Source: Patescibacteria group bacterium (GTDB lineage Bacteria; Patescibacteriota; Patescibacteriia; Patescibacteriales; UBA12465). Taken from it: DNA of 64,000 bases. Below, piece after piece: positions 35,778 to 47,881 of this stretch (positions are counted from its first letter, which is position 1; every line of letters starts with the position of its first letter). The notes beneath the pieces were generated by a model. It made no database searches, was not told the DNA's origin, and was given only the letters and a program-made list of their open reading frames with translations. A program made the position numbers and the translations under genes. Location of the stretch: NCBI GenBank assembly GCA_049318005.1, contig JBMOHE010000004.1, positions 1,480-65,479 of the forward strand, read 5' to 3'.

Positions 35778-36029
35778 ATGGGACAAATTATTTTTGGTAT
35801 AGCCATTGCTGTTGGCGGAATCTTCATGGTTTTAAAAACAGAATGGCTAATGAGTAATTTTGGCAGAATTGCCTGGTTCGAAGATAAGCTTGGCGCAGAA
35901 GGCGGCAGCCGATTAGGCTATAAATTGATTGGTATTATCGCAATCTTTGTCGGCCTAGTCTTTGCAACTGGCAGTGGTTCTAGTTTCATGGAATGGATGC
36001 TTAGTCCGCTTATTAAAGCTGGAAGATAA
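35778..36029 (+). CDS. Small two-TM membrane protein
   Basis: 83-aa ORF with two hydrophobic helices, starting 4 nt after the M23 stop. Confidence 0.5.
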   Translation: MGQIIFGIAIAVGGIFMVLKTEWLMSNFGRIAWFEDKLGAEGGSRLGYKLIGIIAIFVGLVFATGSGSSFMEWMLSPLIKAGR

Positions 36030-36097
36030 GTTACCCCCTTCACAAATTTTTATTTTCTGTTTATAATCAAAAAGTCATTATTAGATAGTGACTTAAT

Positions 36098-36170
36098 GGG
36101 CCCTTAGCTCATCTGGTAGAGCACCTGCTTTGCAAGCAGGGGGTGGCAGGTTCGAGTCCTGTAGGGTCCA
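36098..36170 (+). tRNA. tRNA-Ala (UGC)
   Basis: Cloverleaf folded by hand: acceptor GGGCCCT/AGGGTCC with the G3:U70 Ala identity pair, anticodon loop CUUGCAA, T-loop GGTTCGAGTCC. No encoded CCA. Confidence 0.95.
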
Positions 36171-37659
36171 CATTACGAGATTTGGAGTATTCCAAATCTC
36201 TTTTTGTTTCTAAGATTGGCGATAATTTCGGAGTTTGAAATGTGTAAAAATTAAAAGAGGGCTTTTCTTTAAAAATCGAACTCTGAACTTTGAGTTTAGT
36301 GGCGTAATTGGCCTTTTCATAAAAGTCCGGCAGATCGCACATAAAATCAAAAACTTTATCCAGATTCTTTTTAACGTCAAAACCGTCGTCTTTGCAGTTT
36401 AAGAGTCTTTCCTGTTTATCGGACAGCATAATTTTTACTTTATCCATTTCTTCCCTGAAATCCTCATCATCCAATAATTCCTTTTTCTTCATCTCAATTA
36501 ATTTATCTTTTTCCGCCTTCAGATTTTCTAGTTGCGACTTGAGCGAACCAAAATTACTATGTATCTCATTCTTTCTCTCATCATAAACATCAATAATCGC
36601 TTTTTTAACGGCCTTGACCATATAGGGCTGATAACTAATCTTTTTTAGGCCTAATGAAAAACTATCTTCAACTTCTTTTTTAGTAATTGATTTTAACTGA
36701 CCGCATTTTTTGTTATAGCATTTATAATAAGGATATTTAATGCCCATTTTACCGGTTGAAAAACAAGCAGTTAGCGGACTACCACAATGTGGACAAACCA
36801 CAAAATGCCTTAAGGGAAAACTTTCGTTAACTCGCCCCAAAGAAATACAATCGCCCTTATCGGCGTTTCTAAATAATTTCTGACACTGCCAAAAAATACG
36901 CTCATCAATAAATTTTTCATGACTACCGGCGTATTCTTGATTCTTAACTGTCATAATCCCGATATAGAATTTTTCTCGGAGTAATTCATGGAGTGTCTGC
37001 AAAGTTAACTCTCGGCCTTTATGCGTTCTAAACCCTTTATCATTTAACATCTTTCTGACTTGTTCAATTTGATATAAGCCGGTCGCAAACCGCTCAAAAG
37101 CTAATTTAATTAAAGGCATACGCACCTTATCAAAGATGATCATAGCCTTATTTTGATTATCTCGAGCGTTTAAATAGCCAAAGGGAGCTTTAAAGCACCA
37201 AACTCCTTGTTTTATCCGTTCGTGCATACAAGAGGCGATTCTTTCGCTCCTAACATCATTATCAAATTGAGCGACAGAGGCAACAATCGTTCCAACTAAT
37301 CGACCGCTCGGCGTCTCGTCAACCGTTTCCGTCGTTGATATAAACTTAATTTTAAGTTTATAGAGCGACGCCAGGATGCCGGTATAATCATTAACATTCC
37401 GAGACAAGCGGTCAATTTTATAAACAATCACACAGTCAAGATTCTTGGCATTTTTTACACAGTATTTTAATAATTCTTTTAAGCCCGGCCGTTCAATAGT
37501 TTTCGCTGATACGCCGTCATCGTGAAACATTTCAACAATTTCAATATCGTGCTTGAGGGCATATTCCAAACAAGCATTTTTTTGTTGTTCCAAGCTAACA
37601 CCGGATTGAGCCTGATCTTCAGTTGAAACCCGGTAATAGATAATTCCTTTTTTAGTCAT
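36109..37659 (-). CDS. Large serine recombinase (integrase)
   Basis: Resolvase catalytic domain (IIYYRVSTEDQ, VYKIDRLSRN), recombinase domain, zinc ribbon (CPHCGSPL..YYKCYNKKCG) and coiled coil. Start set at MTKKGIIYY. The last ~32 codons are antisense to the tRNA-Ala terminator and the tRNA itself. Confidence 0.9.
   Translation of the reverse strand: MTKKGIIYYRVSTEDQAQSGVSLEQQKNACLEYALKHDIEIVEMFHDDGVSAKTIERPGLKELLKYCVKNAKNLDCVIVYKIDRLSRNVNDYTGILASLYKLKIKFISTTETVDETPSGRLVGTIVASVAQFDNDVRSERIASCMHERIKQGVWCFKAPFGYLNARDNQNKAMIIFDKVRMPLIKLAFERFATGLYQIEQVRKMLNDKGFRTHKGRELTLQTLHELLREKFYIGIMTVKNQEYAGSHEKFIDERIFWQCQKLFRNADKGDCISLGRVNESFPLRHFVVCPHCGSPLTACFSTGKMGIKYPYYKCYNKKCGQLKSITKKEVEDSFSLGLKKISYQPYMVKAVKKAIIDVYDERKNEIHSNFGSLKSQLENLKAEKDKLIEMKKKELLDDEDFREEMDKVKIMLSDKQERLLNCKDDGFDVKKNLDKVFDFMCDLPDFYEKANYATKLKVQSSIFKEKPSFNFYTFQTPKLSPILETKRDLEYSKSRNVDPTGLEPATPCLQSRCSTR
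36177..36205 (+). terminator. Intrinsic terminator after tRNA-Ala
   Basis: Perfect 10-bp stem GAGATTTGGA/TCCAAATCTC, 4-nt loop, then TTTTT. It lies inside the antisense recombinase ORF. Confidence 0.75.
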
Positions 37660-37681
37660 AAATTTAAAATTAATAAAAAGA

Positions 37682-37807
37682 GAGCAGTAAACTGTCGGAC
37701 ACAATTAAGCAAATACTCAATTGAAACAGTCACTGCTCCCTTTATCTCAAAACGACATCTCGCCGTCATTATGACTTGAGTAAATATTTGCTATATTAAT
37801 TGTGTCC
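37682..37807. other. Nested imperfect inverted repeats upstream of the recombinase gene
   Basis: GAGCAGTAAACTGT (37682-37695) pairs with ACAGTCACTGCTC (37726-37738). GGACACAATTAAGCAAATACTCAA (37697-37720) pairs with TTGAGTAAATATTTGCTATATTAATTGTGTCC (37776-37807). Confidence 0.5.
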
Positions 37808-37849
37808 ATTAAGGATATTAGCATAAATTCTCTTTTTTACAAGATTAAG

Positions 37850-38002
37850 CTACATTAAGGTTGGATTAATATGGCGTTTATAATACTCAAAGGCCAAATA
37901 AGCTAATTGATACAAATCACGGCTAACTTCCATTAATTGAGCGTCAGTATATTCCGAAGATTTCGGGCCGACTAACTCTTTCATTTTTTCTAATGTTAAC
38001 AT
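37850..38002 (-). CDS. Small helical ORF A (50 aa), paralog of ORF B
   Basis: Hand translation: MLTLEKMKELVGPKSSEYTDAQLMEVSRDLYQLAYLAFEYYKRHINPTLM*. Shares the pattern ..(D/E)xxLxE(V/I)xxD(L/I)YxxA(Y/H)LAF(E/D).. with 38028-38177. Confidence 0.45.
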   Translation of the reverse strand: MLTLEKMKELVGPKSSEYTDAQLMEVSRDLYQLAYLAFEYYKRHINPTLM

Positions 38003-38027
38003 ATATTTTATTGATTATTATTTATAT

Positions 38028-38177
38028 TTATTTAAATAAGTTAGGATTTTGCTGATGGATATCAAAGGCGAGATGAGCAAAGGCATAAATATCGTGCCTT
38101 ATTTCTTCAAGCTCTTCATCGGAAAACCGCTTAGCACGACTTCCCAGCAGTTTTCGCAGAGCCTCTAAGCTCATCAT
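38028..38177 (-). CDS. Small helical ORF B (49 aa), paralog of ORF A
   Basis: Hand translation: MMSLEALRKLLGSRAKRFSDEELEEIRHDIYAFAHLAFDIHQQNPNLFK*. Confidence 0.45.
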   Translation of the reverse strand: MMSLEALRKLLGSRAKRFSDEELEEIRHDIYAFAHLAFDIHQQNPNLFK

Positions 38178-38232
38178 TCAATTCCGAAAAATGTCTGCAG
38201 AACATTTTAATTAGTGAATTAAAATGTCTTTA

Positions 38233-39087
38233 TTAAAAGACAATATCGTCTATATTCAGTTCTTTATTTTTTGTTGTTTTTTCTGATTTATTATTTTTAA
38301 TAATTTTATCCAATTCTTCGTTGTTTATTTCGTTTATTTTATATATAGTTTCTTTTATTTGACCCAGGCGGTCGCTATAAAATTCCCGTTCTTTAATGAG
38401 ATCTAAAGAATCGGGGCTAAAGAAGTCTAAGAAATCATTAACCTCATCCGGGTAGTCGATTATTTCCGGTTGATTCAGATTTTTTGAATAGAAAAATTTT
38501 CGTTTCTTAAAATACCTCGGATCGAACATTTCTTTGCTTAAATATTTCGAGATATAAATACCGATATTCTTGGCGTTATTAATAGGCCTAAAATTAATAA
38601 AACCATTTTTCCAGTATTTATCGGCAAACCACCGTTCATATTCTTTTCGCTTATCACCAGTTTCAAATTCCGGCAGAGGATAATTAGAAACTAAATGATA
38701 ATGAACTCTTTTTGACTGCGACTGAAATTCGGGAACAGCTAAATATTGAAAGTCATCTTGGCTATAACTGATCCGCTTAATAAAGCGGTCAAAATATTTA
38801 TTGGCCGTTTTTAAATCCAATATTTCGTCTTTGAATGTCAGCGTTAAAAAAGTTTTAAGTTGCGGATTAGAATTAATTAGGCGAGTTATTTTCTGTCTGG
38901 CTCGCTTAACATTGTCTTCTCTAATTTTAATCTGCTCCGATTCTAAGCGAATATGCTTAAATTCAGGGTGATGAATTTTCCGATACTGTGGCCAACCGAC
39001 CCAATATGATTTCTCATACTCAAATATCTCAATAATATTTCCGGACTTGATGATTTTTTTCTTGACCTCGTAAGGTAAACCATCCAT
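38233..39087 (-). CDS. HUH-superfamily rolling-circle replication initiator (Rep)
   Basis: Motif I FLTLTF, motif II RVHYHLV (HUH), motif III GIYISKYLSK (Y..Y/K), in the order and spacing of pC194/Microviridae-type Reps. Confidence 0.75.
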   Translation of the reverse strand: MDGLPYEVKKKIIKSGNIIEIFEYEKSYWVGWPQYRKIHHPEFKHIRLESEQIKIREDNVKRARQKITRLINSNPQLKTFLTLTFKDEILDLKTANKYFDRFIKRISYSQDDFQYLAVPEFQSQSKRVHYHLVSNYPLPEFETGDKRKEYERWFADKYWKNGFINFRPINNAKNIGIYISKYLSKEMFDPRYFKKRKFFYSKNLNQPEIIDYPDEVNDFLDFFSPDSLDLIKEREFYSDRLGQIKETIYKINEINNEELDKIIKNNKSEKTTKNKELNIDDIVF

Positions 39088-39234
39088 ACGCTTTTTATTA
39101 TTGTCTTAGACTAATAACTTGTTTTTTCGACTCGTGTAATATGAGTGAATAATCAAGTTATTTATTAAGTTTTTAAAGTACACGCTCGGGCGTTAGCAGA
39201 ACGCCCTCGCTTTTGTTTCTTTACGCCTATCCGG

Positions 39235-39300
39235 CCATTCCGTTTTTCGGCCCGGCTCCCCCACGGGGGATCCGCCGGGTCCGAAAAAAACGGAAAATGG
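39235..39300. other. GC-rich long imperfect hairpin (candidate replication origin or structured RNA)
   Basis: CCATTCCGTTTTTCGGCCCGGCTCCCCC-AC-GGGGGATCCGCCGGGTCCGAAAAAAACGGAAAATGG. Strikingly GC-rich in AT-rich DNA, between the HTH gene and rep. Smaller hairpins at 39188-39206 and 39329-39351. Confidence 0.55.
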
Positions 39301-39394
39301 CGAGAAAAGGGGCGATATAAACAAAAAACCATAAGCTTAGTGTTTATGGTCTTATGATAACGAATTGAGTCGTGGCGATATATACCCGCTAAAA

Positions 39395-40084
39395 TTATTT
39401 TGCTTGTCCGGTAAGTTTCTTTGAATAGTCGAGGAGTCTTTTAACAATTTTAGCAATATCTTGATAGCCGAGAATTTTGTCCGGGTATTTCTCGTTAATT
39501 ATTGAGGCTATTTCCTTATCTTTTTTACCGTTTTGGCGTAATTGGTATATTTCCAAGTCTCGAGCGACATTAACTCGTGGCGAGGCTTTCAGAGGCTTAT
39601 GGGCGGATAGTTTGGCGACTTCTTTCCTGATTCTGTTCCAATTCTTCTGCAGTTCCGTTATGGTCGTTTCCGGGTTTAAACGGATAACTGTAAATTCTTC
39701 TCTAGGATTGACAGGATTAGCAATATTAAACGGCCAAAGCTCTGCCGGCATATCCGAAAGACGACCCCTGTCCTCTATCTCGATAAAATCTTTAAGCGGT
39801 TCTTGATAGGAGGAAGATAAATTATATTTTAATCTTAAATCGGAAACGGCTTTGATATAATTATTTATTATACGCTGGACATCGACCGATGAGCCGACTT
39901 CGAGAGATGATTTATCAGACTTAGTATCCTCCATTTGCTCCTCTATTTCCGCCCCAGGAACATAGTACATTATCATAGGAACATTTTCTCTAATATATTT
40001 TATATCATCTCTAAAGTTTCCATTTGTTGCATAGATTATATGAAGATTTTGAGAAAGATTAGAAAGCATAAATTTATTAAGCAA
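39395..40084 (-). CDS. Hypothetical protein with C-terminal HTH-like region
   Basis: The C-terminal ~50 aa (RDLEIYQLRQNGKKDKEIASIINEKY..LGYQDIAKIVKRL) resemble a resolvase/sigma-r4-type HTH. TTG start at 40084, first ATG at 40069. Confidence 0.5.
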   Translation of the reverse strand: MLNKFMLSNLSQNLHIIYATNGNFRDDIKYIRENVPMIMYYVPGAEIEEQMEDTKSDKSSLEVGSSVDVQRIINNYIKAVSDLRLKYNLSSSYQEPLKDFIEIEDRGRLSDMPAELWPFNIANPVNPREEFTVIRLNPETTITELQKNWNRIRKEVAKLSAHKPLKASPRVNVARDLEIYQLRQNGKKDKEIASIINEKYPDKILGYQDIAKIVKRLLDYSKKLTGQAK

Positions 40085-40128
40085 AAAATCTGTTAATTTC
40101 GTTATTATAGAATTAGCTTAGCTAAATT

Positions 40129-40157
40129 ATGATAATAACTATTGTCTGATTTGTCAA
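40129..40157 (-). promoter_or_regulatory. Sigma70-like promoter between RT and the HTH gene
   Basis: On the - strand: TTGACA (40157-40152), 17 nt, TATCAT (40134-40129). Confidence 0.5.
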
Positions 40158-40176
40158 AAAGTGCTATAATAATTTG

Positions 40177-41163
40177 TTAAACCAGGCCAGCCGCTTCCTT
40201 TAGTTTATAAGTATTGCCGTGTTTCAAGAGGGCTAGACAAGCGGCTCTCGTCGCTAGCTCATTATTTTGTTTGAGCCTCTTTAACATCCGATTCTTAGTA
40301 ACCGTCCTTAGGACTCTGTGATTGCTAAACTGTATCCACCCTAAAAAATCTACACCGCTGGCTAAAGTTTTATAATACGTTTTCTGAGGATGCAAAGATA
40401 ATCTTAAACGTCCTTCTAAAAACTCATCTAAGTTCGGTCTTAAGGTGATTAGCTCATTCTTATTCTCGCTTAAAAATACAAAATCATCAGCGTAACGAAT
40501 ATAATGTTTTATTTTTAGAGTCCGCTTAACGAATTGATCAAATTCGTTCATATAGACATTAACCAAGAGTTGGGAAGTTAGATTGCCTAACGGCAAGCCG
40601 ACTCTGGGCCGACCAGGAGTTTCAAAACTATCAATTACCTGTCCGAATAACCATAATAAATCTTTATCATTAATGTATTTTGCTAAAATGTTTTTTAAAA
40701 TCTCATGGTCAATACTCGCAAAAAATCTTTTAATGTCACATTTCAAAATCCATACTGTTTTTTTATTATTTTCAGAAACTCGACCGCTAAATTTCGCGAG
40801 ACGAAAGACCGATCGATGGGTGCCCTTGTCTATTCGGCAAGAATAGGAATCATTAATAAATTGCTTATCAAAATATTGATAAGTTTCCCGATATAATAAA
40901 TGATGGAGAAGCCGGTCGCGGACAATCGCTTTATGAATATGCCTAGGTTTGGGGTCGGAAATCTTAAAAGATTGATACCCGCCGTGCTCATAGGTTTTTT
41001 CTTTCAAGCTACGGTAAAGACTTAAAATATTGTCCATCATCTTCCCTTGGAAGGAGGCAACGTCACGACGCTTTCTCTTCCCTGTTAAAAATTCTTCCCA
41101 AGCTAAAAGCAAATTAGGGACGGTTATAATTTCACAATAAGTTTTAGTAAATTTTTTAATTAT
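40177..41163 (-). CDS. DGR reverse transcriptase
   Basis: RT motifs CDIKRFFASIDH, the DGR-type LGNLTSQ, YADDFVF and VDFLGW. The track ORF starts at TTG 41112, but the in-frame upstream codons encode KKFTKTYCEIITVPNLLLAW, which looks like the conserved RT N-terminus. The real start is therefore probably ATA/ATT at ~41163/41160. Confidence 0.9.
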   Translation of the reverse strand: MIKKFTKTYCEIITVPNLLLAWEEFLTGKRKRRDVASFQGKMMDNILSLYRSLKEKTYEHGGYQSFKISDPKPRHIHKAIVRDRLLHHLLYRETYQYFDKQFINDSYSCRIDKGTHRSVFRLAKFSGRVSENNKKTVWILKCDIKRFFASIDHEILKNILAKYINDKDLLWLFGQVIDSFETPGRPRVGLPLGNLTSQLLVNVYMNEFDQFVKRTLKIKHYIRYADDFVFLSENKNELITLRPNLDEFLEGRLRLSLHPQKTYYKTLASGVDFLGWIQFSNHRVLRTVTKNRMLKRLKQNNELATRAACLALLKHGNTYKLKEAAGLV

Positions 41164-41169
41164 AAATTT

Positions 41170-41556
41170 ATGAGTACAGCTCTTCGACCGCCCATAGTGC
41201 TCGTTAAAACCAAGGAAACATACAGCCTTTGGTTTCAGACTCTCTCAGACTTTCCCAAGATTTATCGATATAACTTGGGCGGCAAAATCGAAAGCTGTTT
41301 TTTGTCTCTCTTAGAAAATACTTTTATCACTGCCTATTTATCTGGCGAGAAAAAATCTGCCCAACTTTCTCTAGCGATTTTAAAACTTGATAGCCTTAAA
41401 TTTTTTCTGCAACTGGCTTGGGAAAATAAATGTATTTCTAATCTTAAATATTCTTCTCTATCCGAACGACTGGATGAAGTTGGGCGTATGCTGGGTGGTT
41501 GGAAAAAGGGGCTAGAAAATAAAACTCCCTCGAACGAGCGAAGGAGAAACCGATAA
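41170..41556 (+). CDS. avd: DGR accessory variability determinant (Avd, four-helix-bundle family)
   Basis: 128 aa, helical, basic C-terminus, with a ..LDEVGRMLGGWKKG.. block like Avd/23S-IVS-protein family members. On the strand opposite to the RT, TR and targets. Its stop codon overlaps the TR end. Confidence 0.8.
   Translation: MSTALRPPIVLVKTKETYSLWFQTLSDFPKIYRYNLGGKIESCFLSLLENTFITAYLSGEKKSAQLSLAILKLDSLKFFLQLAWENKCISNLKYSSLSERLDEVGRMLGGWKKGLENKTPSNERRRNR
41525..41546 (-). other. Hairpin 6 nt downstream of TR in - strand RNA
   Basis: On the - strand, CTCCTTCG-ctcgtt-CGAGGGAG forms 8 bp including one U-G wobble. That position would be a C-A mismatch in + strand RNA, favouring function in the - strand transcript. 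Confidence 0.45.
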
Positions 41557-41667
41557 GTTGCGGGGAGACGACCCGGTGACGATACTGACCGTTTAAGACA
41601 TTGGCATTGCCAAGGCGATTCACGTTGACGTTCAGACCGTCAGAATTCACGTTCACGTTAACCACAA
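41553..41667 (-). repeat. DGR template repeat (TR), 115 bp
   Basis: Aligns without gaps to VR1 and VR2. Every difference lies at a + strand T, which is a - strand A. In coding sense it is rich in AAC/AAT codons (VVNVNVNSDGLNVNVNRLGNANVLNGQYRHRVVSPQLI). Confidence 0.92.
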
Positions 41668-41906
41668 AAATGTATAAAACGCCTTCTAATCTCACCGCCG
41701 CCCTGACGAACACGAAAGAAACGGCTGAATATTATTCGGGACCTAAAAGTCCACCAGCGCTCTATACCAACTTATATATTTTTTGATTAAAAATAGTCTC
41801 CCTATTTCGCAAGCCGTAACCAACGAAAATCTCGAAAATATTTTTAAATAGTCTTGGTCCGATAGCCGTGACCAGCGGGCAAAACAAAACCATGTCTTCA
41901 TTATAC

Positions 41907-41966
41907 AAAAAAATCCCCCGGAATCCAAGAGCTTAGTTTAGGACTAAGTTCAAAGGATCCGAGGGA
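41907..41966 (-). terminator. Probable intrinsic terminator after DGR target 1
   Basis: On the - strand an outer imperfect stem (TCCCTCGGATCC / GGATTCCGGGGGA) encloses a perfect CTTAGT/ACTAAG hairpin, followed by TTTTTTT. Confidence 0.5.
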
Positions 41967-41971
41967 CAAAG
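41948..41971. repeat. Conserved 24-bp element downstream of VR1 (gttcaaaggatccgagggacaaag)
   Basis: 23/24 identical to 42745-42768. Located 33 nt from the VR1 end; the other copy is 32 nt from the VR2 end. Confidence 0.7.
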
Positions 41972-41988
41972 TAACAAATTTAAATGGT

Positions 41989-42663
41989 CTAAGTGACCGA
42001 GGGAATAAGTTGCGGGGAGACGACCCGGCGACGAAACTGACCGTCAAAGACATCGGCATCGCCAAGGCGATTCACGTAGACGTCCAGACCGTCAGAATTC
42101 ACGCGCACGCCAACCACAACCAAGTTATCTTCAGGATTATCCTCATTGATTGGTTTGTTCTCATCCTTTTTAATAAGAGAAAACGTACCATATCCTTCCT
42201 GCCTTAACCAGTCAGGCAAAGTTTCACAGAAATCAATGAATTGATTTTGTGATAGCCATTTTTGGTTCCAGGTTCCTGGTAAAGATTTAAAGATATCCAT
42301 TAATTTACCGTCGCCGATCATTTCATGCACCTGCACGAAGGCTTCCATGGTAGCAACGCCGGGATTATTTACGCCCCAGTTGACGAAATCGCCATCAATG
42401 CCAGACTTGAAAGTGTCTTTAGCATTGTAGATTAAACGGCTACCGTCCAAAGCTTTAATGGTAAGAGTGCTGTCACCAGAGATAAGACGAATGATGCCTT
42501 CGGTAACTTTAGCAGTAATCTTTCTCTTCAAGAAATCGTCTAATTCTTCTTCTGTAGAATTGACAAGTTTTTTAAGAGCACTGTTAAACAGTGATTTTTC
42601 GTTTTGAACTCTCTCGATTACTGCTTTAATGAGTCCAAGACCAGTGTTGTCCGTTGTGTTCAT
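41989..42663 (-). CDS. DGR target protein 1 (224 aa, no signal peptide)
   Basis: The C-terminal 38 codons equal VR1. Paralog of 42785-43456, sharing blocks such as ALDG, IDG.F..WG, FCE..P.WLRQ.GY.TF and VNSDGLDVYV. Confidence 0.85.
   Translation of the reverse strand: MNTTDNTGLGLIKAVIERVQNEKSLFNSALKKLVNSTEEELDDFLKRKITAKVTEGIIRLISGDSTLTIKALDGSRLIYNAKDTFKSGIDGDFVNWGVNNPGVATMEAFVQVHEMIGDGKLMDIFKSLPGTWNQKWLSQNQFIDFCETLPDWLRQEGYGTFSLIKKDENKPINEDNPEDNLVVVGVRVNSDGLDVYVNRLGDADVFDGQFRRRVVSPQLIPSVT
42005..42119 (-). repeat. DGR variable repeat 1 (VR1)
   Basis: 12/115 differences from TR, all at TR adenines (- sense). The 24 nt at the 3' end are identical to TR. Confidence 0.92.
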
Positions 42664-42744
42664 TTTTCACCAGTATTATGGTTAGTGATTGTTATCAGCA
42701 CTTCCCGGCTGAATAAGGTAAACCCTCGGGGCCTAAGAACATGT

Positions 42745-42768
42745 GTTCAAAGGATCCGAGGGGCAAAG
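42745..42768. repeat. Conserved 24-bp element downstream of VR2 (gttcaaaggatccgaggggcaaag)
   Basis: See 41948-41971. CCCTCGG (42723-42729) can pair with CCGAGGG (42755-42761). Confidence 0.7.
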
Positions 42769-42784
42769 AATCAAAGACTAAGGA

Positions 42785-43456
42785 TTAAGCTGACAAAGCT
42801 ATAAGTTGCGGGGAGACGACCCGGCGACGACACTGACCGTACAAGACACTGGCATCGCCAAGGCGATACACGTAGACGTCCAGACCGTCAGAATTCACGT
42901 GCACGTCAACCACAACATACTCATCATTAACTTTTGTTAAGAAAAAAGTGGCATATCCGTCCTGACGGAGCCAGGTAGGGTGTTTTTCGCAAAAACGAAT
43001 AATTTGAGCTTGCGTCATTACAAGTTTTTCCAAACCAGGATTGAGTGAGGTGAAAATTTTAACAAAATTTCCATCTTCAACAACTTCGTGGATGTCCACT
43101 AATGTTTCGAGAGTAGCGGGGCCTGATTTATTGAGTCCCCAACTTTTAAAATTTCCATCTATAAACGAACGGAATGTTTGTTTGGCATCAGCGATATACG
43201 CCTTACCATCGAGAGCTTCAACCATCACCTTTTCTCCGACGGAGATAAGGCTAAGCATTGAAGATTTTTGTTCTACATCTTTTGCGAACAAATCTTCAAC
43301 GAGCTTGAAAACTACTCCTGGTTTGCCGACGATTTTCTGTACTTCGTCCAAACTTGAACCGTTCTTTTTTGCCGTGCTGGCAATTGCTTTAAGCACGGTA
43401 CCGGCGAGTTCCAGCCCTTGTCCGAAACTGGGATCTTGTTGGCTACTTTTTTCCAT
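42785..43456 (-). CDS. DGR target protein 2 (223 aa, no signal peptide)
   Basis: The C-terminal 38 codons equal VR2. Paralog of target 1. Preceded by a consensus promoter. Confidence 0.85.
   Translation of the reverse strand: MEKSSQQDPSFGQGLELAGTVLKAIASTAKKNGSSLDEVQKIVGKPGVVFKLVEDLFAKDVEQKSSMLSLISVGEKVMVEALDGKAYIADAKQTFRSFIDGNFKSWGLNKSGPATLETLVDIHEVVEDGNFVKIFTSLNPGLEKLVMTQAQIIRFCEKHPTWLRQDGYATFFLTKVNDEYVVVDVHVNSDGLDVYVYRLGDASVLYGQCRRRVVSPQLIALSA
42801..42915 (-). repeat. DGR variable repeat 2 (VR2)
   Basis: 11/115 differences from TR, all at TR adenines (- sense). Confidence 0.92.
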
Positions 43457-43540
43457 TTTACAATTTATTTGTATTGTTAAAGTATTTTCTGCGCTTTACC
43501 CAGCAGAATTGGGTATTACTCATTATTTGAGTATTAATAC

Positions 43541-43569
43541 ATTATATCATAAAAGTTATTATATGTCAA
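43541..43569 (-). promoter_or_regulatory. Consensus sigma70 promoter of the DGR target genes
   Basis: On the - strand: TTGACA (43569-43564), exactly 17 nt, TATAAT (43546-43541), ~85 nt upstream of the target 2 ATG. Confidence 0.7.
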
Positions 43570-43696
43570 CCATTAGACAATGCCCCATGAAACGACATAA
43601 CCAAATAACTACAAGTTTAAAAACCCCGTCCAATATTTAATTTCCTCAATAATTTCGTCTAAAGAGTTGGAAATCCGTTTTTTAACGACCACTAAA

Positions 43697-43732
43697 ATAA
43701 AAACAACTTCGTTAATGCGAAGTTGTTTTTTT
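43697..43732. terminator. Bidirectional intrinsic terminator
   Basis: Perfect 10-bp stem AACAACTTCG/CGAAGTTGTT with a 6-nt loop, an A-run upstream and a T-run downstream. Confidence 0.7.
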
Positions 43733-43734
43733 AT

Positions 43735-43767
43735 TTGACAAATCACAACTCAATGTACTAATATAAT
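43735..43767 (+). promoter_or_regulatory. Promoter of the small ORF 43788-43973
   Basis: TTGACA at 43735-43740, then TAATAT (18-nt spacer) or TATAAT (21-nt spacer). AAGGAGG lies 8 nt before the ATG. Confidence 0.55.
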
Positions 43768-43787
43768 TTTGAAAGGAGGTTTATTGT

Positions 43788-43973
43788 ATGAATACTGATG
43801 TTTCTTTTATTCGTTCTTTATTATCCTTCGTTCCTCTTATCTTTCTGGCTATCCCCGTGATGATCAGAAAAGATGGGCAAACGGCATTCGCAACTTGCGA
43901 AGGCCAACCTCAAACCAAAAAGAAGAAGAAAAATCGCATGGTGGTAGGTTCAGCCCACGGAGACGAACGATGA
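43788..43973 (+). CDS. Small hydrophobic/polybasic protein (61 aa)
   Basis: Strong SD (GAAAGGAGG) and promoter. N-terminal TM-like SLLSFVPLIFLAIPVMI, then QTKKKKKNR. No homology assignment. Confidence 0.45.
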   Translation: MNTDVSFIRSLLSFVPLIFLAIPVMIRKDGQTAFATCEGQPQTKKKKKNRMVVGSAHGDER

Positions 43974-44138
43974 GGTGTATTGTATAGAATTAAACGGCTG
44001 CGCATAATGCCTTTAATTTTATGGGGGAGTTTTTAATTCTGAAGTTTAATCTTTTGTTTTAACGGCTAACACTACACCGATGACTAGGGAAACATCGTTT
44101 CCCTCTCCCAAAAATTTTTCTAACCGAGTTTTCTAAAC

Positions 44139-44167
44139 TTAAAAAGGCTTTCCCTGCGGAAAGCCTT
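44139..44167 (-). terminator. Intrinsic terminator after the helicase gene
   Basis: Perfect 10-bp stem AAGGCTTTCC/GGAAAGCCTT with a 4-nt loop, followed on the - strand by TTTTT. Confidence 0.75.
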
Positions 44168-44172
44168 ATTTA

Positions 44173-46473
44173 TTATCTTTTGATAATTTCCATTATTTTT
44201 TTAAATGCTTGTCGAATATCTTCATACTGACATTCTAAGAATGGATTCGGATTACCAATGATCATTAAAGATTCTTGAGCTCTTGATAAAGCCACATTCA
44301 ATCTTCTAATATCATTATTAAATCCAATTTCACCCTTACTGTTTGAACGAACTAAACTGACAAAAACAAATTTTCTTTGACCACCTTGAATTGCGTCAAC
44401 GGTAATTACTAATTGACTCAATATCTCTTCGATATTTTTCTCGTTCACCTGCTCTTTTAAAGTGCTATTAAACAATAAATGTTTTCTTAGTCTTTTTTTA
44501 AATAGATGAACTTGGGCCATATACGGAGTAATTATAACTAAATCAGTAATCCTCCCTTTTTGTTTAAGATGATTAACGGCTGTCATAATAAATTTAGCTA
44601 TTACCAAATTTGCTTCACCAGGATTAACATAAGAGGTCCCCATTTTCTTTTCCGGAGTCAAGGTTTCTATAAAAGTTAATTTACCACTGTTTGACGGATT
44701 AAATCGACCAGTCTTTAATTTACCCTCATAGAAAACCGTGCTAACCAAGTTATTGATTTTTTCAAGCGAGCGTCTATTGGTTGATAGCAAATTCGCTGGA
44801 AAATAATTAAGTTCAATCAATGAGTTAAAAAATCCTCGTTCAAAATAATAAGCTAATGATTTTGGTAAATCCAGTTTACTAAAATTCTCATGTTCACTTA
44901 TTTTTTTTTCAAAAAATTCCATTAACTCTTTCGGCAAACTTATATTACCCAGTTGTTTATTATCCCCAATTAAAACTACCTTATCTCTTGCGGCCATGAT
45001 TACTGGCAACAAATCCAGAAAGAAACCTCGGCTCGCTTCATCGACTACGACCACATCAATTTTAATGTCTAGGCCTTTCAAATACTCAGACACCCAGCGA
45101 AAAGAGTCAATCGTACAACCCAAGATTAAGCCCTGCGGATTTTTTCGCAGATAATCTCTTTCGTACTTTCTTGGATTGTCTTTCAGCATGAAACGTTTTT
45201 CACAATGAAATTGCTGAGCAGGCGCAGAAATTACTTTTAAATCATTTCCCAAACGAAAGACCTTGTCATCAGAATATTTGGCAGTTTCGCAAATCAAATT
45301 ATCCACGCCAAGGTTACTATGAGAGACAATTAAAACGTTGCGATTGTTTTTGTTGAATTGATAATTAGCGGCGGCTGTTAAAAACGTTTTCCCAGTCGCT
45401 GCCGGACCAACTACGAGTGTAAAAAACTCAAGGCCCATAATTTTAATCATCGCCTCAACTTGACTACGGTCGCGCCTTATTTTATCAGTTTCATTACTAA
45501 AGAAAATAGTTGAATAATTATTCAAGAAATCATCCCGTTTATTGCTTTTGGCTTTTTCTCCTAAAGCTAAAAATTCAGCTGGCCCGTAAGGGACCTTCTT
45601 GTTTAGTAAGGCCTCAAAAGAAAATATGGCATACTTTTTTTCAAGCAAATCGATTATTGGTCGCGCTTTGAATGATTTAATATGAGAAAGAATGTTTCGA
45701 CTTACTGGCTCGCCGAAAGAAAATGTGACTTCAGTATCAGTTGCCTGGATAACTAAAGTTTCAATGTCTTCCAAGAAAATCTTGTCTCCTTCTCTAACAA
45801 TAGGCAAGCCTTTATAATTATTCTTCAAGGCGGCCACGGCACTTTTTACTTTTTTGTTCTTTTCAGAATATTCAAAAGTAATAGGAATATCAAGATTAAT
45901 AAGTTCGATCTCCCAAGCGTTTAACCAGTCAATATAAAGTTTTGATAAATATATCATCGCTTTAATAAACTCGGAAAACCCTTCTTTAATTGGTTTAAAA
46001 TTTGGTTCTCGATTAATTTCATAAACCATTCTGGCCCGTCTTCCAATGTCGTTATAATAACGATCATTAAAATAATGGGTTAACAATTTATTCTCTTTAA
46101 GGCGTTTTCGCAAATTTTCAACATTACAGAGAAATTCAAACTCTTTCCAGCTAGAGAAAGGAACGAAATCGAGGTATTCCTCATTTACAACGGACATAAA
46201 AGGAGAAAAATCCTTCTTACCTCCATTGATCAAGATAATAAGACTTGAGGAAAAAGTTCTCTTCATAATTAACCCATCCTTGTGAGAATAGTTAATCAAA
46301 AGAATTAAGCTTGGAGAAACCTTACCCGAAGGACTAGACTCTAGCTTAAAGTTCATAATTTCTGTTTGAAGCTGATCGCGAAAATTTCTTCGCGTTACAT
46401 TCCAGCCTCTGCCTTGAAGATATTTTGAAAAAACATCTTCCGGTAATTCATTGATAACAAGAATTTCACTCAT
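44173..46473 (-). CDS. Upf1/DNA2-like SF1 helicase with ~340-aa unassigned N-terminal region
   Basis: Walker A VVGPAATGKT, Walker B VVVDEASR, and later motifs TVDAIQGGQRKFVFVS and RRLNVALSRAQESL (AAA_11/AAA_12-type). I see no motif in the N-terminal third. Confidence 0.85.
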   Translation of the reverse strand: MSEILVINELPEDVFSKYLQGRGWNVTRRNFRDQLQTEIMNFKLESSPSGKVSPSLILLINYSHKDGLIMKRTFSSSLIILINGGKKDFSPFMSVVNEEYLDFVPFSSWKEFEFLCNVENLRKRLKENKLLTHYFNDRYYNDIGRRARMVYEINREPNFKPIKEGFSEFIKAMIYLSKLYIDWLNAWEIELINLDIPITFEYSEKNKKVKSAVAALKNNYKGLPIVREGDKIFLEDIETLVIQATDTEVTFSFGEPVSRNILSHIKSFKARPIIDLLEKKYAIFSFEALLNKKVPYGPAEFLALGEKAKSNKRDDFLNNYSTIFFSNETDKIRRDRSQVEAMIKIMGLEFFTLVVGPAATGKTFLTAAANYQFNKNNRNVLIVSHSNLGVDNLICETAKYSDDKVFRLGNDLKVISAPAQQFHCEKRFMLKDNPRKYERDYLRKNPQGLILGCTIDSFRWVSEYLKGLDIKIDVVVVDEASRGFFLDLLPVIMAARDKVVLIGDNKQLGNISLPKELMEFFEKKISEHENFSKLDLPKSLAYYFERGFFNSLIELNYFPANLLSTNRRSLEKINNLVSTVFYEGKLKTGRFNPSNSGKLTFIETLTPEKKMGTSYVNPGEANLVIAKFIMTAVNHLKQKGRITDLVIITPYMAQVHLFKKRLRKHLLFNSTLKEQVNEKNIEEILSQLVITVDAIQGGQRKFVFVSLVRSNSKGEIGFNNDIRRLNVALSRAQESLMIIGNPNPFLECQYEDIRQAFKKIMEIIKR

Positions 46474-46483
46474 GATCTTTTGT

Positions 46484-46508
46484 TTTGTTTACTCCGCCTT
46501 GGGCGGAT
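46484..46508. repeat. 25-nt GC-rich hairpin-capable motif, copy B (tttgtttactccgccttgggcggat)
   Basis: 24/25 identical to 363-387. Lies in the 5' leader of the helicase gene on the - strand; TCCGCC/GGCGGA can form a stem. Confidence 0.6.
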
Positions 46509-46581
46509 GGTTTTTAAATTTTTAAATTACTAGGAAGATTTATCCTAAAATAAATACGGCTAATAGTCAAGGAAAATAGCA

Positions 46582-46608
46582 TTAAAAAAGCCCCATTAAC
46601 TGGGGCTT
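46582..46608 (-). terminator. Intrinsic terminator after the HD/dGTPase gene
   Basis: Perfect 8-bp stem AAGCCCCA/TGGGGCTT followed on the - strand by TTTTTT. Confidence 0.7.
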
Positions 46609-46612
46609 AAAA

Positions 46613-47737
46613 TTACCAAGCGTCAAAGCGCTTAAATTTACTTTTATCAAGATCGGCATTAAAGATATCAATTTTAGAATTTTTTGGCAGGTTTGAAAGA
46701 ATTTCATAGAAGCCAAAGCTAGAAAAAAAACCAGGGGCATAAATCTTTTTTTTATCCTTTTTTAGAGTAAGAGTTATTTTCCTAATTTCACTATCCGTCA
46801 TTAAGGCTAGAGCCAGAAAAACATTATGTCCAAGCTTACCAAATATATCTTCTAAAAATGGGTATACTTTTTTAAAGTCATCGTAAACAGCTTCTCTTTG
46901 AACTTCATGATCAAGCTTACGATAAAAATTATGAAAACTCCATTGGCGTAATGATTCAAATTGCTGAGCGACTTGCGAATCAGAAAAAGAAATGAACTGT
47001 TTTTCAGCGCTCTCTTTAACTAAATGAAGAATGCAATTATTCGTCCGCTCTCTTTGACTTTTCCCAAGAGCAAAAAATTCTGCCGGCAACTGACTTTCCT
47101 GAAAATATGAACAGCGTAAAGCGTCATTAAGATCGGAAAAAGTATAGGCAATTTTATCGGCGAACATAACAACTGCATATTCAAGCGGCAAAGACCTATT
47201 CATTATTAATTGGCCATCACCACGAGAATGATTAAGGATTCCTTCCAGGGTTTCCCAGGATAGGTTTAAACCCTTTCCCGATCGTTCTACTTTTTGCGCA
47301 ATAACCAGGCTCATAACTTGATGCGTAAATTTACGACCAGCTAATTCGCTAATCGCTCTTTCGCCAATATGCCCATAAGGCGTATGGCCTATGTCGTGAC
47401 CAAGCGCTATTGCTTCAACTAAATGAACGTTAAGCCCTAAAATAGTTGCGATATAAACTGCGACCGAAACAACTTCATCGGTATGAGTTCTTCTGTTTCT
47501 CAGATGCGGATTATTTTGCCTATCTACGAACACCTGCGTCTTATCGTTTAAACGACGCAAGGACTTACTAAGGCGAATCTTTTCTTTATCTATAAAGAAG
47601 GGGTTTAAGGCACCCAGATAAATACCGTCATCATCTGAATTTTCAATAGTAGATCGACGACCAACACTCTGACTAGACGCGAATTGCTGAAAAAATAGGG
47701 CCATCTGAAAAGGCGAAAACTGATTTTCTTTTCTCAT
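46613..47737 (-). CDS. dGTPase-family HD-domain dNTP triphosphohydrolase
   Basis: RRTHTDEVVSVAVYIA..ALGHDIGHTPYGHIGE..GLNLSWETLEGILNHS matches the dGTP triphosphohydrolase family signature as I recall it. Confidence 0.8.
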   Translation of the reverse strand: MRKENQFSPFQMALFFQQFASSQSVGRRSTIENSDDDGIYLGALNPFFIDKEKIRLSKSLRRLNDKTQVFVDRQNNPHLRNRRTHTDEVVSVAVYIATILGLNVHLVEAIALGHDIGHTPYGHIGERAISELAGRKFTHQVMSLVIAQKVERSGKGLNLSWETLEGILNHSRGDGQLIMNRSLPLEYAVVMFADKIAYTFSDLNDALRCSYFQESQLPAEFFALGKSQRERTNNCILHLVKESAEKQFISFSDSQVAQQFESLRQWSFHNFYRKLDHEVQREAVYDDFKKVYPFLEDIFGKLGHNVFLALALMTDSEIRKITLTLKKDKKKIYAPGFFSSFGFYEILSNLPKNSKIDIFNADLDKSKFKRFDAW

Positions 47738-47820
47738 AATATAGGGGTTTTATTTTGTTTTTAAAGAATGATTATTAATAAAAAATTTTATAATTAATAC
47801 TAATAAATGTCAATTAGAAA

Positions 47821-47860
47821 TAAAAAAGAGCCTTGATTTCTAATGAAATCTTTGGCTCTT
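47821..47860 (-). terminator. Intrinsic terminator after 47882-48661
   Basis: Composite stem AAGAGCC..GATTTC/GAAATC..GGCTCTT followed on the - strand by TTTTTT. Confidence 0.55.
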
Positions 47861-47881
47861 AAATCTAATCATCTAGGCTCA

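Follow-up and report, generated by a model that had tools for sequence, protein, structure and literature searches.

How does a diversity-generating retroelement (DGR) supply its reverse transcriptase (RT) with a functional template RNA when the gene avd lies, in inverted orientation, between the template repeat (TR) and the RT gene? The question is raised by a cassette in the window, i.e. the whole stretch of 64,000 nucleotides of patescibacterial DNA that was analysed: its gene order is targets, TR, inverted avd and RT, with the targets, the TR and the RT in the - sense and avd in the + sense. To our knowledge, Bordetella phage BPP-1 is the only system in which DGR reverse transcription has been dissected. 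The order in that DGR is mtd-avd-TR-Sp-brt, and a cryo-EM description of its DGR RNA is available (Handa et al., bioRxiv 10.1101/2023.10.23.563531; PDB 8ub7-8ube); the BPP-1 module order and geometry used below are taken from that preprint. The answer that we consider probable is that the cassette is a Patescibacteria-type DGR of the published architecture B3 with a self-contained TR RNA, which would have a permuted leader at one end and a terminator hairpin, located in the avd tail, at the other.

Repeats, targets and genes of the cassette

The TR is an AAC-rich repeat of 115 nt on the - strand (41553..41667), with the 3' end CAACUUAU (41560->41553). The 115-nt repeat is shared with two variable repeats, VR1 (42005-42119, -) and VR2 (42801-42915, -), which are located at the 3' ends of target gene 1 (41989..42663, -; 224 aa) and target gene 2 (42785..43456, -; 223 aa), respectively, with 14-16 nt between the end of each VR and the stop codon of its open reading frame. 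Every mismatch between the TR and the VRs along the repeat falls at a TR adenine, as read in the - sense (12/12 in VR1 and 11/11 in VR2); 25 of the 27 TR adenines are located at codon positions 1-2, and the last 24 nt, an invariant GC-rich, IMH-like end, are identical in the TR and both VRs. Downstream of VR1, a hairpin that is conserved across loci, CCCUCGGAUCC...GGAUUCCGGGGG with a U-run (41915..41965, -; terminator-like inner part 41931->41915), is by its sequence the terminator of target gene 1, and it is possibly also a VR-flanking recognition element. A 31-nt element is repeated after both VRs. Between strains that are 97-98.5% identical elsewhere, the VRs differ by 15-18%, mostly at TR-A sites, and both VRs carry the counterparts of two TR substitutions; as judged from such comparisons, the DGR has recently been active in the lineage. 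The copy in the window, whose RT gene begins with ATT instead of ATG, may or may not still be active. No att-type repeat of tRNA-Ala delimiting an integrated element was found at 35900-48000 with a seed of 12.

The RT gene (40177..41160, -; 327 codons) was assigned from its match to RVT_1 in Pfam (6e-19), from its similarity to the Bordetella phage bRT, its best solved relative (8ub7; E 8.2e-36, with the alignment starting at residue 9), and from the starts of its relatives; its translation contains the motifs LGNLTSQ and YADD, as in the RTs of the DGR clade. At 41160-41158, close relatives have the codon ATG where the window has ATT (CAT versus AAT on the + strand), and the RTs of the relatives are 327-330 aa long; on this alignment of starts, the true RT start is 41160, and not the TTG at 41112 that is given by a mechanical ORF call. 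The starts of avd and RT are thus only 9 nt apart, back to back, so that their promoters must overlap each other's coding starts, or the RT must partly use read-through.

The avd gene (accessory variability determinant; 41170..41556, +; 128 aa) is divergent from the RT gene and convergent with the TR RNA. Its product matches PF22296, bAvd (58.3 bits versus a cut-off of 40; 1.2e-15), and 618 Avd homologues were found; a PDB sequence search with Avd returned no match to solved structures at E <= 1, and the assignment therefore depended on Pfam. The sequence-only reading of this locus, which had placed avd on the + strand between the TR and the RT gene, was correct in all of its coordinates.

The layout among related loci

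That reading had also set the layout against the canonical one. The layout is not unusual: it is the published architecture B3, TR-(avd)-RT, in which avd is located on the reverse strand between the TR and the RT gene, and to which 90% of the CPR DGRs belong in Wu et al. 2018 (Nucleic Acids Res 46:11; PMC5758913); the cassette is an ordinary Patescibacteria-type DGR, and its layout is not in itself new. The counterpart of B3 in Roux et al. 2021 (PMC8144416) is DGR clade 2, which is restricted to Patescibacteria; in that paper, as in PMC11661182, the orientation of avd is not discussed. Our survey of avd orientation gives the same picture: the RT gene is on the opposite strand to avd and directly upstream of it in 77 of 80 related loci, a - sense TR is found at the avd 3' end in ~66 of these 80, and the TR and the RT share one strand in every relative. 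The layout and the hairpin described below recur together in ~74 of the 81 sequences searched, far beyond chance, and the relatives with this layout come from Falkowbacteria, Nomurabacteria, Paceibacterota and other Patescibacteria. By itself, then, the inverted avd is a textbook case of a catalogued layout and changes nothing.

The avd stop codon TAA (41554-41556) does overlap the start of the TR/VR homology, as had been pointed out: it falls within the first bases of the homology, ATAAGTTGCGG, which begins at 41553. The overlap is incidental, since the position of the stop floats among 66 relatives, being at one extreme 43 nt short of the TR and at the other 81 nt within it (-43 to +81).

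The hairpin that follows the TR

Six nt after the TR, the - strand encodes a conserved, terminator-like stem-loop, CUCCUUCG-CUCGUU-CGAGGGAG (41525..41546), followed by the U-tract UUUUAUUUUC (41515..41524, -), with which the TR RNA is predicted to end and whose + strand encodes E-N-K-T of Avd. In the - sense (41546->41525) the stem has 8 pairs, one of them a U.G that becomes C.A in the + sense, which bears out the earlier observation that the pairing is complete in the - sense only. Across 64 non-identical relatives, the stem comprises 447 Watson-Crick pairs, 41 G.U pairs in the - sense and a single A.C, i.e. a + sense wobble; 95.4% of the stem cells are paired (82.7% when shuffled), and the covariation score of 0.405 is far above both the shuffled (0.176) and the slid (0.07-0.14) controls. 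The hairpin had been proposed to be a functional - strand RNA element, with covariation as the check, and the proposal is supported. A covariance model of the hairpin matches once per locus and only at the TR 3' flank, in 74 of 81 sources; the base of the stem, CUCC/GGAG, is invariant across deep lineages, and in 58 of the 64 relatives at least 7 of the first 9 nt of the U-tract are U.

An action of the hairpin in the + sense, as the 3' end or a stabiliser of the avd mRNA, would agree with its location at the avd 3' end and with the avd stop codon that sits in the loop in some relatives, but the wobbles favour the - sense by 41 to 1, the + strand has no U-run after the hairpin, only AAAC, and no + strand terminator was called at the hairpin; we regard such an action as exceedingly improbable.

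The hairpin followed by UUUUAUUUU is the top terminator-like site of the region and, by its sequence, would qualify as an intrinsic terminator. Because of the U-tract, the hairpin looks like an intrinsic terminator and the 3' stem-loop of a separate TR RNA, which makes it unlikely that the TR and the RT are obligatorily co-transcribed, as had been suggested. On that suggestion, the TR and the RT would form one - strand transcript, antisense through avd, with a spacer-like priming region in the avd C-terminal codons. It accords with the common strand of TR and RT in every relative, with the hairpin being a - strand element, with the 9 nt between the RT and the avd ATG, which leave no room for a conventional upstream promoter, and with the fact that intrinsic terminators are seldom 100% efficient. 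We nevertheless consider it very unlikely, in view of the conserved, textbook terminator signature and of the two observations that follow, one from the avd codons and one from the leader. Some functional read-through into the RT is compatible with the location of the RT on the TR strand in every relative.

Synonymous constraint in avd

A structured spacer of 100-140 nt inside avd would impose an extra constraint on synonymous sites, whereas avd codons 1-117 show none: in the alignment of the relatives, the synonymous entropy is approximately as expected through codon 117, collapses at codons 118-120 (K118-T119-P120) and stays frozen in the tail; the codons over the U-tract include AAA (33/33) and ACT (31/33). 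Opposite the last ~11 codons, on the other strand, lie the U-tract, the hairpin and the linker of the TR RNA, and these elements, ~38 nt, are the only constrained sequence 3' of the TR; no long antisense RNA element was detected inside avd beyond the last ~11 codons by the synonymous-site entropy test, and thus no long spacer is embedded in the gene. In this tail, the conserved Avd residues E-x-K-T-P share their positions with the U-tract and with the invariant base of the stem (CUCC/GGAG), and the constraints on RNA and on protein are not cleanly separable there. The priming region that had been placed within the avd C-terminal codons is not supported by these results, and the spacer-like modules appear instead 5' of the TR.

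The predicted promoter and the structured leader that precede the TR

Right after the terminator of target gene 1 there is a -10 box, TATAAT (41900..41905, -), with TG directly upstream (41907->41906), which is predicted to act as promoter for the TR RNA. The box is invariant in 16 close loci, and most of 49 loci have TATAAT, TATACT or TAnnnT at this place; TTGGAT makes a weak -35 element, and a consensus promoter scan did not call this promoter. The ~225 nt up to the TR (41668..41893, -) form a structured leader according to RNAalifold, covariation and MFE. Along the - strand, the leader consists of the hairpins H1/P1 (41893-41848) and H2/P2 (41847-41787), which share a GGUYANGGCU loop; an A-run and then the primer-like AUAAGUUG (41775->41768); a 12-bp long-range helix, H3 (41767-41756 with 41683-41672); and, between the strands of H3, the hairpins P3 (41752-41739) and P4 (41725-41697), separated by a conserved A-rich single strand.

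The RNAalifold structure has 57 pairs, 51-52 of which show compensatory (double) changes. Paired cells amount to 93.5%, against 72.0% in shuffled and 43-48% in slid controls, the covariation is 0.693, against 0.273 and 0.12-0.17, respectively, and G.U pairs outnumber A.C pairs by 419 to 44; in H3, 97.4% of the cells are paired and 9/12 pairs are compensatory. The structure is reproduced by the single-sequence MFE of the window RNA, the total folding energy of which is not unusual (z = -0.93), a measure that is uninformative for an AU-rich RNA. Between strains, the leader diverges by 0.4%, the least in the cassette, against 1.3-1.6% for RT and avd. Conservation of the leader as a small ORF (41743-41928 or 41601-41786) was ruled out by frequent indels of 1-2 nt and by the pairwise compensatory changes. 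Rfam 15 has no match in 41400-42100, hairpin and leader included, even at E <= 1, and at the gathering threshold only 5 tRNAs are matched in the whole window. A strongly covarying leader 5' of the TR, which has its own predicted promoter and carries the spacer-like modules, is the second observation against the co-transcript.

Predicted pairing of the leader with the TR 3' end

In the single-sequence MFE, AUAAGUUG and CAACUUAU form a duplex, which is stacked on H3. The pairs that flank its core are paired in 60.2% of the cases, compared with 50.1+-2.1% in shuffles, and the contiguous pairs number 71, compared with 30.6+-7.3; for both measures, 0/5000 shuffles reach the observed value. This test used a motif-based anchor, the 3'-most anchor allowing G.U having been discarded since it chose U-rich linker sites. 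A compensatory AAUUG:CAAUU is found in three loci; the core, AGUUG:(C/A)AACU, is nearly invariant, so that the support from covariation is modest, and it is absent in one clade, in which the leaders end in AUAAAAGUUG. In 18 loci the last G of the leader motif faces A. A primer-like duplex between the leader motif and the TR 3' end has statistical support, if modest.

It can also be argued that the hairpin is a generic terminator only, that the leader has another role (regulation, stability or target recognition) and that priming differs, e.g. with the 3' OH of the terminated RNA as primer. The plain terminator signature, the weak covariation of the core primer duplex and a leader with neither sequence similarity to the BPP-1 RNA nor an Rfam family speak for this account, as does the proposal of 3'-OH priming by nicked template RNA for BPP-1 (PMC5703328). 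Against it, the covariance-model matches are unique to the TR 3' flank, the CUCC/GGAG stem base is invariant across deep lineages, and each module of the leader has its match, in the same order, in the cryo-EM description of BPP-1; we consider this account rather unlikely.

A proposed self-contained TR RNA and its meaning

On the reading that we favour, a self-contained TR RNA, the TR would be made as its own non-coding RNA of ~380 nt from the - strand. Its transcript ends, its binding by Avd and RT and its priming are what we infer from the elements described above: the RNA would start from the conserved -10 box (41905->41900), just after the target gene 1 terminator, and would end at the hairpin and U-tract (41546->41515), which lie within the ~11 final codons of the convergent avd, antisense to them. 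The hairpin probably has two functions, terminating the TR RNA and serving as the TR-adjacent stem-loop that Avd is predicted to grip, as in the Bordetella phage. The modules of the BPP-1 spacer, located 3' of the TR there, would here be placed 5' of the TR in the ~225-nt leader: first the strand AUAAGUUG, pairing with the TR 3' end; second the 12-bp helix, stacked directly on the primer strand and with its other strand stopping 5-6 nt before the TR; and then the short stem-loop, the A-rich single strand and the long stem-loop. Leader and TR together would be the Bordetella DGR RNA in circularly permuted form.

Whether B3 DGRs in general use such a circularly permuted RNA, the leader providing a primer strand, a stop duplex, a thumb-ring-like strand and an RT-binding-like stem-loop, and only the Avd-binding-type stem-loop remaining 3' of the TR, is in our judgement an evenly balanced matter; order, size and position are what suggest that the leader modules are equivalent to those of the BPP-1 spacer. 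As far as we found, the permuted-leader reading appears to be undescribed, and a literature search of incomplete coverage returned no description of an upstream leader for CPR TRs. The arrangement suggests that an inverted avd directly after the TR is tolerated because the structured RNA sits 5' of the TR.

What could matter, therefore, is the RNA logic behind the B3 layout. The conservation of DGR RNA beyond BPP-1 had been inferred with the functional RNA assumed to be downstream of the TR. Patescibacteria/CPR are the most DGR-rich bacterial lineage; if the modules are permuted in them, what is conserved in the mechanism would be its three-dimensional organisation, the gene order being free to vary, searches of the downstream TR flank alone would miss the functional RNA of the B3 class, and the inverted avd of a whole DGR class would be explained. 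A minimal RNA would also be defined for the DGRs of uncultured bacteria, and the 380-nt RNA with RT and Avd would be a concrete construct for in vitro reconstitution and for the engineering of compact diversifiers.

Comparison with known systems

As in intrinsic terminators, the window hairpin has a G+C-rich stem followed by UUUUNUUUU; unlike them, it has a fixed stem base (CUCC/GGAG) and a fixed position relative to the TR across deep lineages, and it is embedded antisense in a coding sequence, that of avd. Compared with B3 in Wu et al. 2018, the order, the orientation and the host group are all the same, with no difference in layout, whereas the TR-flanking RNA elements, i.e. the hairpin/terminator inside avd and the structured 5' leader, are undescribed in that survey.

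Putative Avd-binding stem-loops just downstream of the TR have been reported in 207 of 278 Avd-containing DGRs, CPR included (bioRxiv 10.1101/2023.10.23.563531), and the window family resembles them in its stem of ~8-9 bp a few nt after the TR. The same survey folded only 40 nt upstream and 100 nt downstream of the TR and assumed that stop duplexes form between upstream and downstream sequence, so that a 225-nt upstream leader would be invisible to it; in contrast with this assumption, the stop-like duplex of the window family is formed wholly by upstream sequence.

The window DGR shares with BPP-1 a homologous RT (E 8e-36), an Avd-family accessory protein and an adenine-specific transfer from TR to VR; a stem-loop right after the TR, at the place of the BPP-1 Avd-binding stem-loop (Sp3-33 compared); a predicted duplex of the TR 3' end with a distal strand, with G as the next template base; an adjoining duplex of 11-12 bp, the second strand of which stops a few nt short of the TR on its 5' side (5-6 nt in the window); and then a short stem-loop, an A-rich single strand and a long stem-loop. 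It differs from BPP-1 in that avd is inverted and follows the TR, and in having no structured spacer of ~140 nt between TR and RT; 5' of the TR, in what would be a permuted connectivity, it has the spacer-like modules, together with two extra hairpins, P1 and P2. The loop of the post-TR hairpin is 3-15 nt long in the window family, unlike the UNCG tetraloop of BPP-1, and this stem-loop is followed by a U-tract, at which the RNA probably ends.

Cassette genes and their layout among relatives

The region contains a complete diversity-generating retroelement (DGR). The reverse transcriptase (RT) ORF is located on the minus strand (Pfam RVT_1, 6e-19), with the RT of the Bordetella phage BPP-1 DGR, bRT, as its closest solved relative (8ub7, E 8.2e-36); avd is located on the plus strand (41170-41556) and is a member of the Avd family (PF22296 bAvd, 58.3 bits; cut-off, 40), for which 618 homologues were found, the named ones all from Patescibacteria. 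Three 115-nt repeat copies are present: the first is the template repeat (TR, 41553-41667), and the other two are the variable repeats VR1 (42005-42119) and VR2 (42801-42915), located at the 3' ends of minus-strand ORFs of 224 aa and 223 aa, respectively. All three copies end in the same 24 nt, and 25 of the 27 TR adenines occupy codon positions 1-2. In the minus-sense reading, 12/12 and 11/11 of the TR/VR differences within the repeat fall on TR adenines; because all mismatches sit on adenines of the first copy in this sense, 41553-41667 is the TR in minus sense, as the earlier, sequence-only reading had proposed.

That reading had also regarded the inverted avd as an unusual layout, to be checked against DGR catalogues; it is already catalogued as architecture B3, "TR-(avd)-RT", where the parentheses denote the reverse strand (Wu et al. 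2018, PMC5758913), and it is the norm for this DGR class. We have compared 80 loci with Avd relatives (54-89% identity), obtained from MAGs that are mostly labelled Patescibacteria: in 77/80, the RT lies directly upstream of avd and runs on the other strand; of the remaining three loci, two are truncated at contig ends and one (L063) has no RT match. In about 66 loci, a repeat is located at the avd 3' end with a copy 300-490 nt further on, and nearly all mismatches between the two are T on the avd strand and hence A on its complement. The window is typical of the B3 class. Many cassette-bearing contigs (L002, L003, L006, L009, L010, L020 and others) bear MAG labels of other taxa ('uncultured Gammaproteobacteria', 'Ignavibacteria', 'Saccharibacteria', 'Nanoarchaeia'); on Patescibacteria-type cassettes, such labels probably reflect mis-binning or mislabelling, not host range.

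A TTG at 41112 has been rejected as the RT start, as relatives open the frame at the equivalent of 41160; in close relatives this start is ATG, giving 327-330 aa, and the bRT alignment begins at residue 9 of the longer RT. The codon at this position (41160->41158, minus strand) is ATT in the window and in L083, an independent assembly that is 100% identical to it, and ATG in the 92-97% identical contigs L081, L082 and L084 and in most distant relatives; either the RT is down-tuned or dead, or a rare start codon is used. Since the RT starts at 41160 and not at 41112, the RT and avd starts are back to back, 9 nt apart (41161-41169; about 9-14 nt in relatives), and therefore each promoter must lie within the first codons of the other gene, unless the mRNAs lack leaders. 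The conserved RT codons for E-I-I-T contain a -10-like TATAAT (41125-41130, plus strand).

The avd 3' end and the hairpin that follows the TR

The TR/VR homology does include the avd TAA (41554-41556) among its first bases; this overlap is incidental and not meaningful, as the stop position floats among 66 loci: its end may precede the homology by up to 43 nt or lie up to 81 nt within it, with an overlap in 26/66. The TR starts ~382-392 nt after the avd ATG, wherever avd stops. Beyond the conserved ...GLENKTP, the Avd tail varies in length and sequence, and is simply the translation of whatever lies antisense to it.

Any spacer-like priming region 3' of the TR had been expected to lie inside the avd C-terminal codons. 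Synonymous-site entropy, computed over a codon alignment of 36 non-redundant avd genes to reveal a hidden antisense RNA, tracks the expected level through codon 117 and collapses only at K118 (AAA 33/33), T119 (ACT 31/33) and P120 (CCC/CCT only), which correspond to GGAGUUUU on the opposite strand. The expectation fails, since nucleotide-level constraint in avd is confined to the U-tract, the hairpin and the linker, i.e. about the last 11 codons; no BPP-1-like 100-140-nt spacer was found within avd in these 36 genes.

On the minus strand of 64 non-identical relatives, the TR 3' end is followed by a 5-10-nt linker ending in UUU, a hairpin and a U-run. The hairpin consensus is CUCC, a variable stem, a 3-15-nt loop, the returning stem and GGAG, then UUUUNUUUU; U's make up 7 or more of the 9 nt past the stem in 58/64 relatives. 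The window hairpin (41546->41525, minus strand) starts 6 nt past the TR, and its single U.G pair in minus sense is C.A in plus sense, as previously described. Across the 64 relatives, the stems contain 447 Watson-Crick, 41 G.U and 1 A.C pairs, A.C being the plus-strand wobble. A covariance model built from 22 examples has one match per locus, always at this position, in 74/81 sources, and a single marginal match elsewhere in 612 kb. Paired alignment cells reach 95.4% (82.7% shuffled), double-change cells 83 (18 shuffled) and the covariation score 0.405 (0.176 shuffled, 0.07-0.14 in slid registers); the excess of G.U over A.C pairs and this covariation among related DGRs bear out the proposed functional minus-strand RNA.

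The hairpin is also the top-ranked terminator-like site of a consensus scan of 40000-43700. Because a stem and a U-run directly follow the TR, most TR transcripts probably end there, and a TR-RT co-transcript antisense to avd, as formerly envisaged, would not be their usual form. In three loci (L015, L016 and L022; avd 3' end, about 4360-4400), a G-run replaces the CUCC...GGAG hairpin, with the TR and the AGUUGG leader motif retained; this natural variant could separate a terminator from an Avd-binding role.

A structured leader upstream of the TR

Strong conservation extends over the ~340 nt that separate the VR1 end from the TR. On the minus strand, the closing hairpin and U-run of target gene 1 (41965->41908) are directly followed by an invariant TATAAT with TG just upstream (41907->41900), and then by a leader of ~225 nt (41893->41668). 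In an alignment of 49 diverse loci, RNAalifold gives ten helices with 57 pairs in total, of which 51 show compensatory changes; by pair counting, 93.5% of the cells are paired (72.0+-0.5% shuffled, 43-48% slid), with double changes at 52/57 pairs and a covariation of 0.693 (0.273 shuffled, 0.12-0.17 slid). Since G.U pairs exceed A.C pairs by 419 to 44, the leader RNA is minus-sense. It is the least diverged part of the cassette between 97-98.5% identical strains (1 difference in 238 nt), and Rfam holds no family that matches it, even at E <= 1.

The leader opens with two hairpin domains, H1/P1 (41893-41848) and H2/P2 (41847-41787), whose near-identical loops share GGUYANGGCU (41857-41880, 41805-41828) and look like a duplicated module. 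An A-run and the invariant AGUUGG follow (AUAAGUUG in the window, 41775->41768), and the next base begins H3, a 12-bp long-range helix (41767-41756 with 41683-41672) that is 97.4% paired, has compensatory changes in 9/12 pairs and whose 3' strand ends 5-6 nt before the TR/VR homology. H3 encloses P3, which is a short stem-loop (41752-41739), a conserved single strand rich in A (CCGAAUAAUAUUCAGC), P4, which is a long stem-loop (41725-41697), and a conserved GGYRGUG. Almost all leaders retain the A-run (41776-41786), 4-6 nt upstream of AGUUG; after transcription, it could base-pair with the U's on either side of the terminal hairpin (41515-41552) to give a three-way junction.

The unconstrained MFE fold of the predicted RNA (41893->41515) recovers all leader elements and also pairs AUAAGUUG with the TR 3' end CAACUUAU (41560->41553), stacked on H3. 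The duplex core AGUUG:(C/A)AACU is nearly invariant across loci, with a compensatory AAUUG:CAAUU in three. When leaders and TR ends are swapped between loci, pairing at the eight flanking positions falls from 60.2% to 50.1+-2.1% and contiguous pairs from 71 to 30.6+-7.3; 0/5000 shuffles reach either value, and slid registers give 32-51%. As one clade has no extension past the core, the support for this predicted duplex is significant but moderate, i.e. weaker than that for the leader helices.

Recent activity and possible mobile context

In RT, avd, TR and leader, contigs L082 and L084 share 97-98.5% identity with the window; their VR1 and VR2 differ from it by 15-18%, mostly at TR-adenine positions, and both of their TR substitutions (41612, 41666) are mirrored at the matching sites of VR1 and VR2. 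These VR differences and mirrored substitutions indicate that TR-to-VR transfer has been active since the strains diverged.

A 31-nt element (GTTCAAAGGATCCGAGGGRCAAAG...), conserved in related loci and corresponding to the 5' arm of a hairpin plus a U-run, is located about 30 nt downstream of each VR (41948-41978, 42745-42775) and is absent from the TR; it may serve to terminate the target genes, correspond to the VR-flanking hairpin that BPP-1 requires for homing, or both. Target gene 2 is preceded, at a distance of about 85 nt, by a perfect sigma-70 consensus promoter (43541-43569, minus strand; TTGACA, 17 nt, TATAAT, with TG).

A large serine recombinase ORF (Resolvase, Recombinase and Zn ribbon) overlaps with its 3' end a plus-strand tRNA-Ala gene (36098-36171; region 36098-37704), and a Rep protein (PF23343) and a 229-aa gene are located between the recombinase and the DGR (region 38233-39087). 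L081-L083 keep the synteny of Rep, the latter gene (224 aa in relatives), RT, avd and the targets; the short contig L084 has only RT, avd and the targets. The context suggests that a small integrative or replicative element carries the DGR; a search of 35900-48000 for an att-type repeat of the tRNA-Ala, at seed 12, found none. An SF1 helicase (AAA_11/AAA_12, 766 aa) and an HD-domain protein adjoin the targets (44173-47737); related DGR contigs have a 174-aa gene and a Hydrolase_2 gene there instead, and the cassette is thus variable on its right side.

Comparison with the BPP-1 DGR RNA

Most likely, the TR RNA would be self-contained and have its own promoter, the structured 5' leader would supply the spacer functions, and the terminal stem-loop/terminator would be written antisense into the avd tail. 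We consider a permuted RNA to be the part worth pursuing. We have found no description of a permuted B3 TR RNA in the literature, of which our coverage is incomplete; the conservation survey of the BPP-1 cryo-EM preprint (bioRxiv 10.1101/2023.10.23.563531) folded 40 nt upstream and 100 nt downstream of each TR, and so could not see the upstream leader.

In the BPP-1 structure (bioRxiv 10.1101/2023.10.23.563531), the TR is followed by the spacer RNA (Sp), beginning with the Avd-binding stem-loop Sp3-33; next comes a strand that pairs with the TR 3' end; priming starts at Sp A56, and the first template base, TR G117, is a G; adjacent to it, Sp59-70 forms an 11-bp duplex with a segment 8 nt upstream of the TR ('cPRT Stop'), followed by a short stem-loop, unpaired adenosines, the single-stranded 'Thumb Ring' and a long bRT-binding stem-loop. 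From the primer strand on, the window leader repeats these modules in that order and at similar sizes: a primer-like strand, a 12-bp helix to the pre-TR segment, a short stem-loop, an A-rich single strand and a long stem-loop; here, too, a G lies directly 5' of the paired TR segment. The P1/P2 module has no counterpart in the BPP-1 RNA. Unlike in BPP-1, the window chain enters at the primer strand and exits via the pre-TR strand into the TR, and only the post-TR stem-loop stays 3' of the TR. As the modules match in order while the connectivity differs, we infer from order, geometry and covariation that the B3 TR RNA may be a circular permutation of the BPP-1 DGR RNA: joining the ends of the latter and cutting it between the Avd-binding stem-loop and the primer strand gives exactly the window order.
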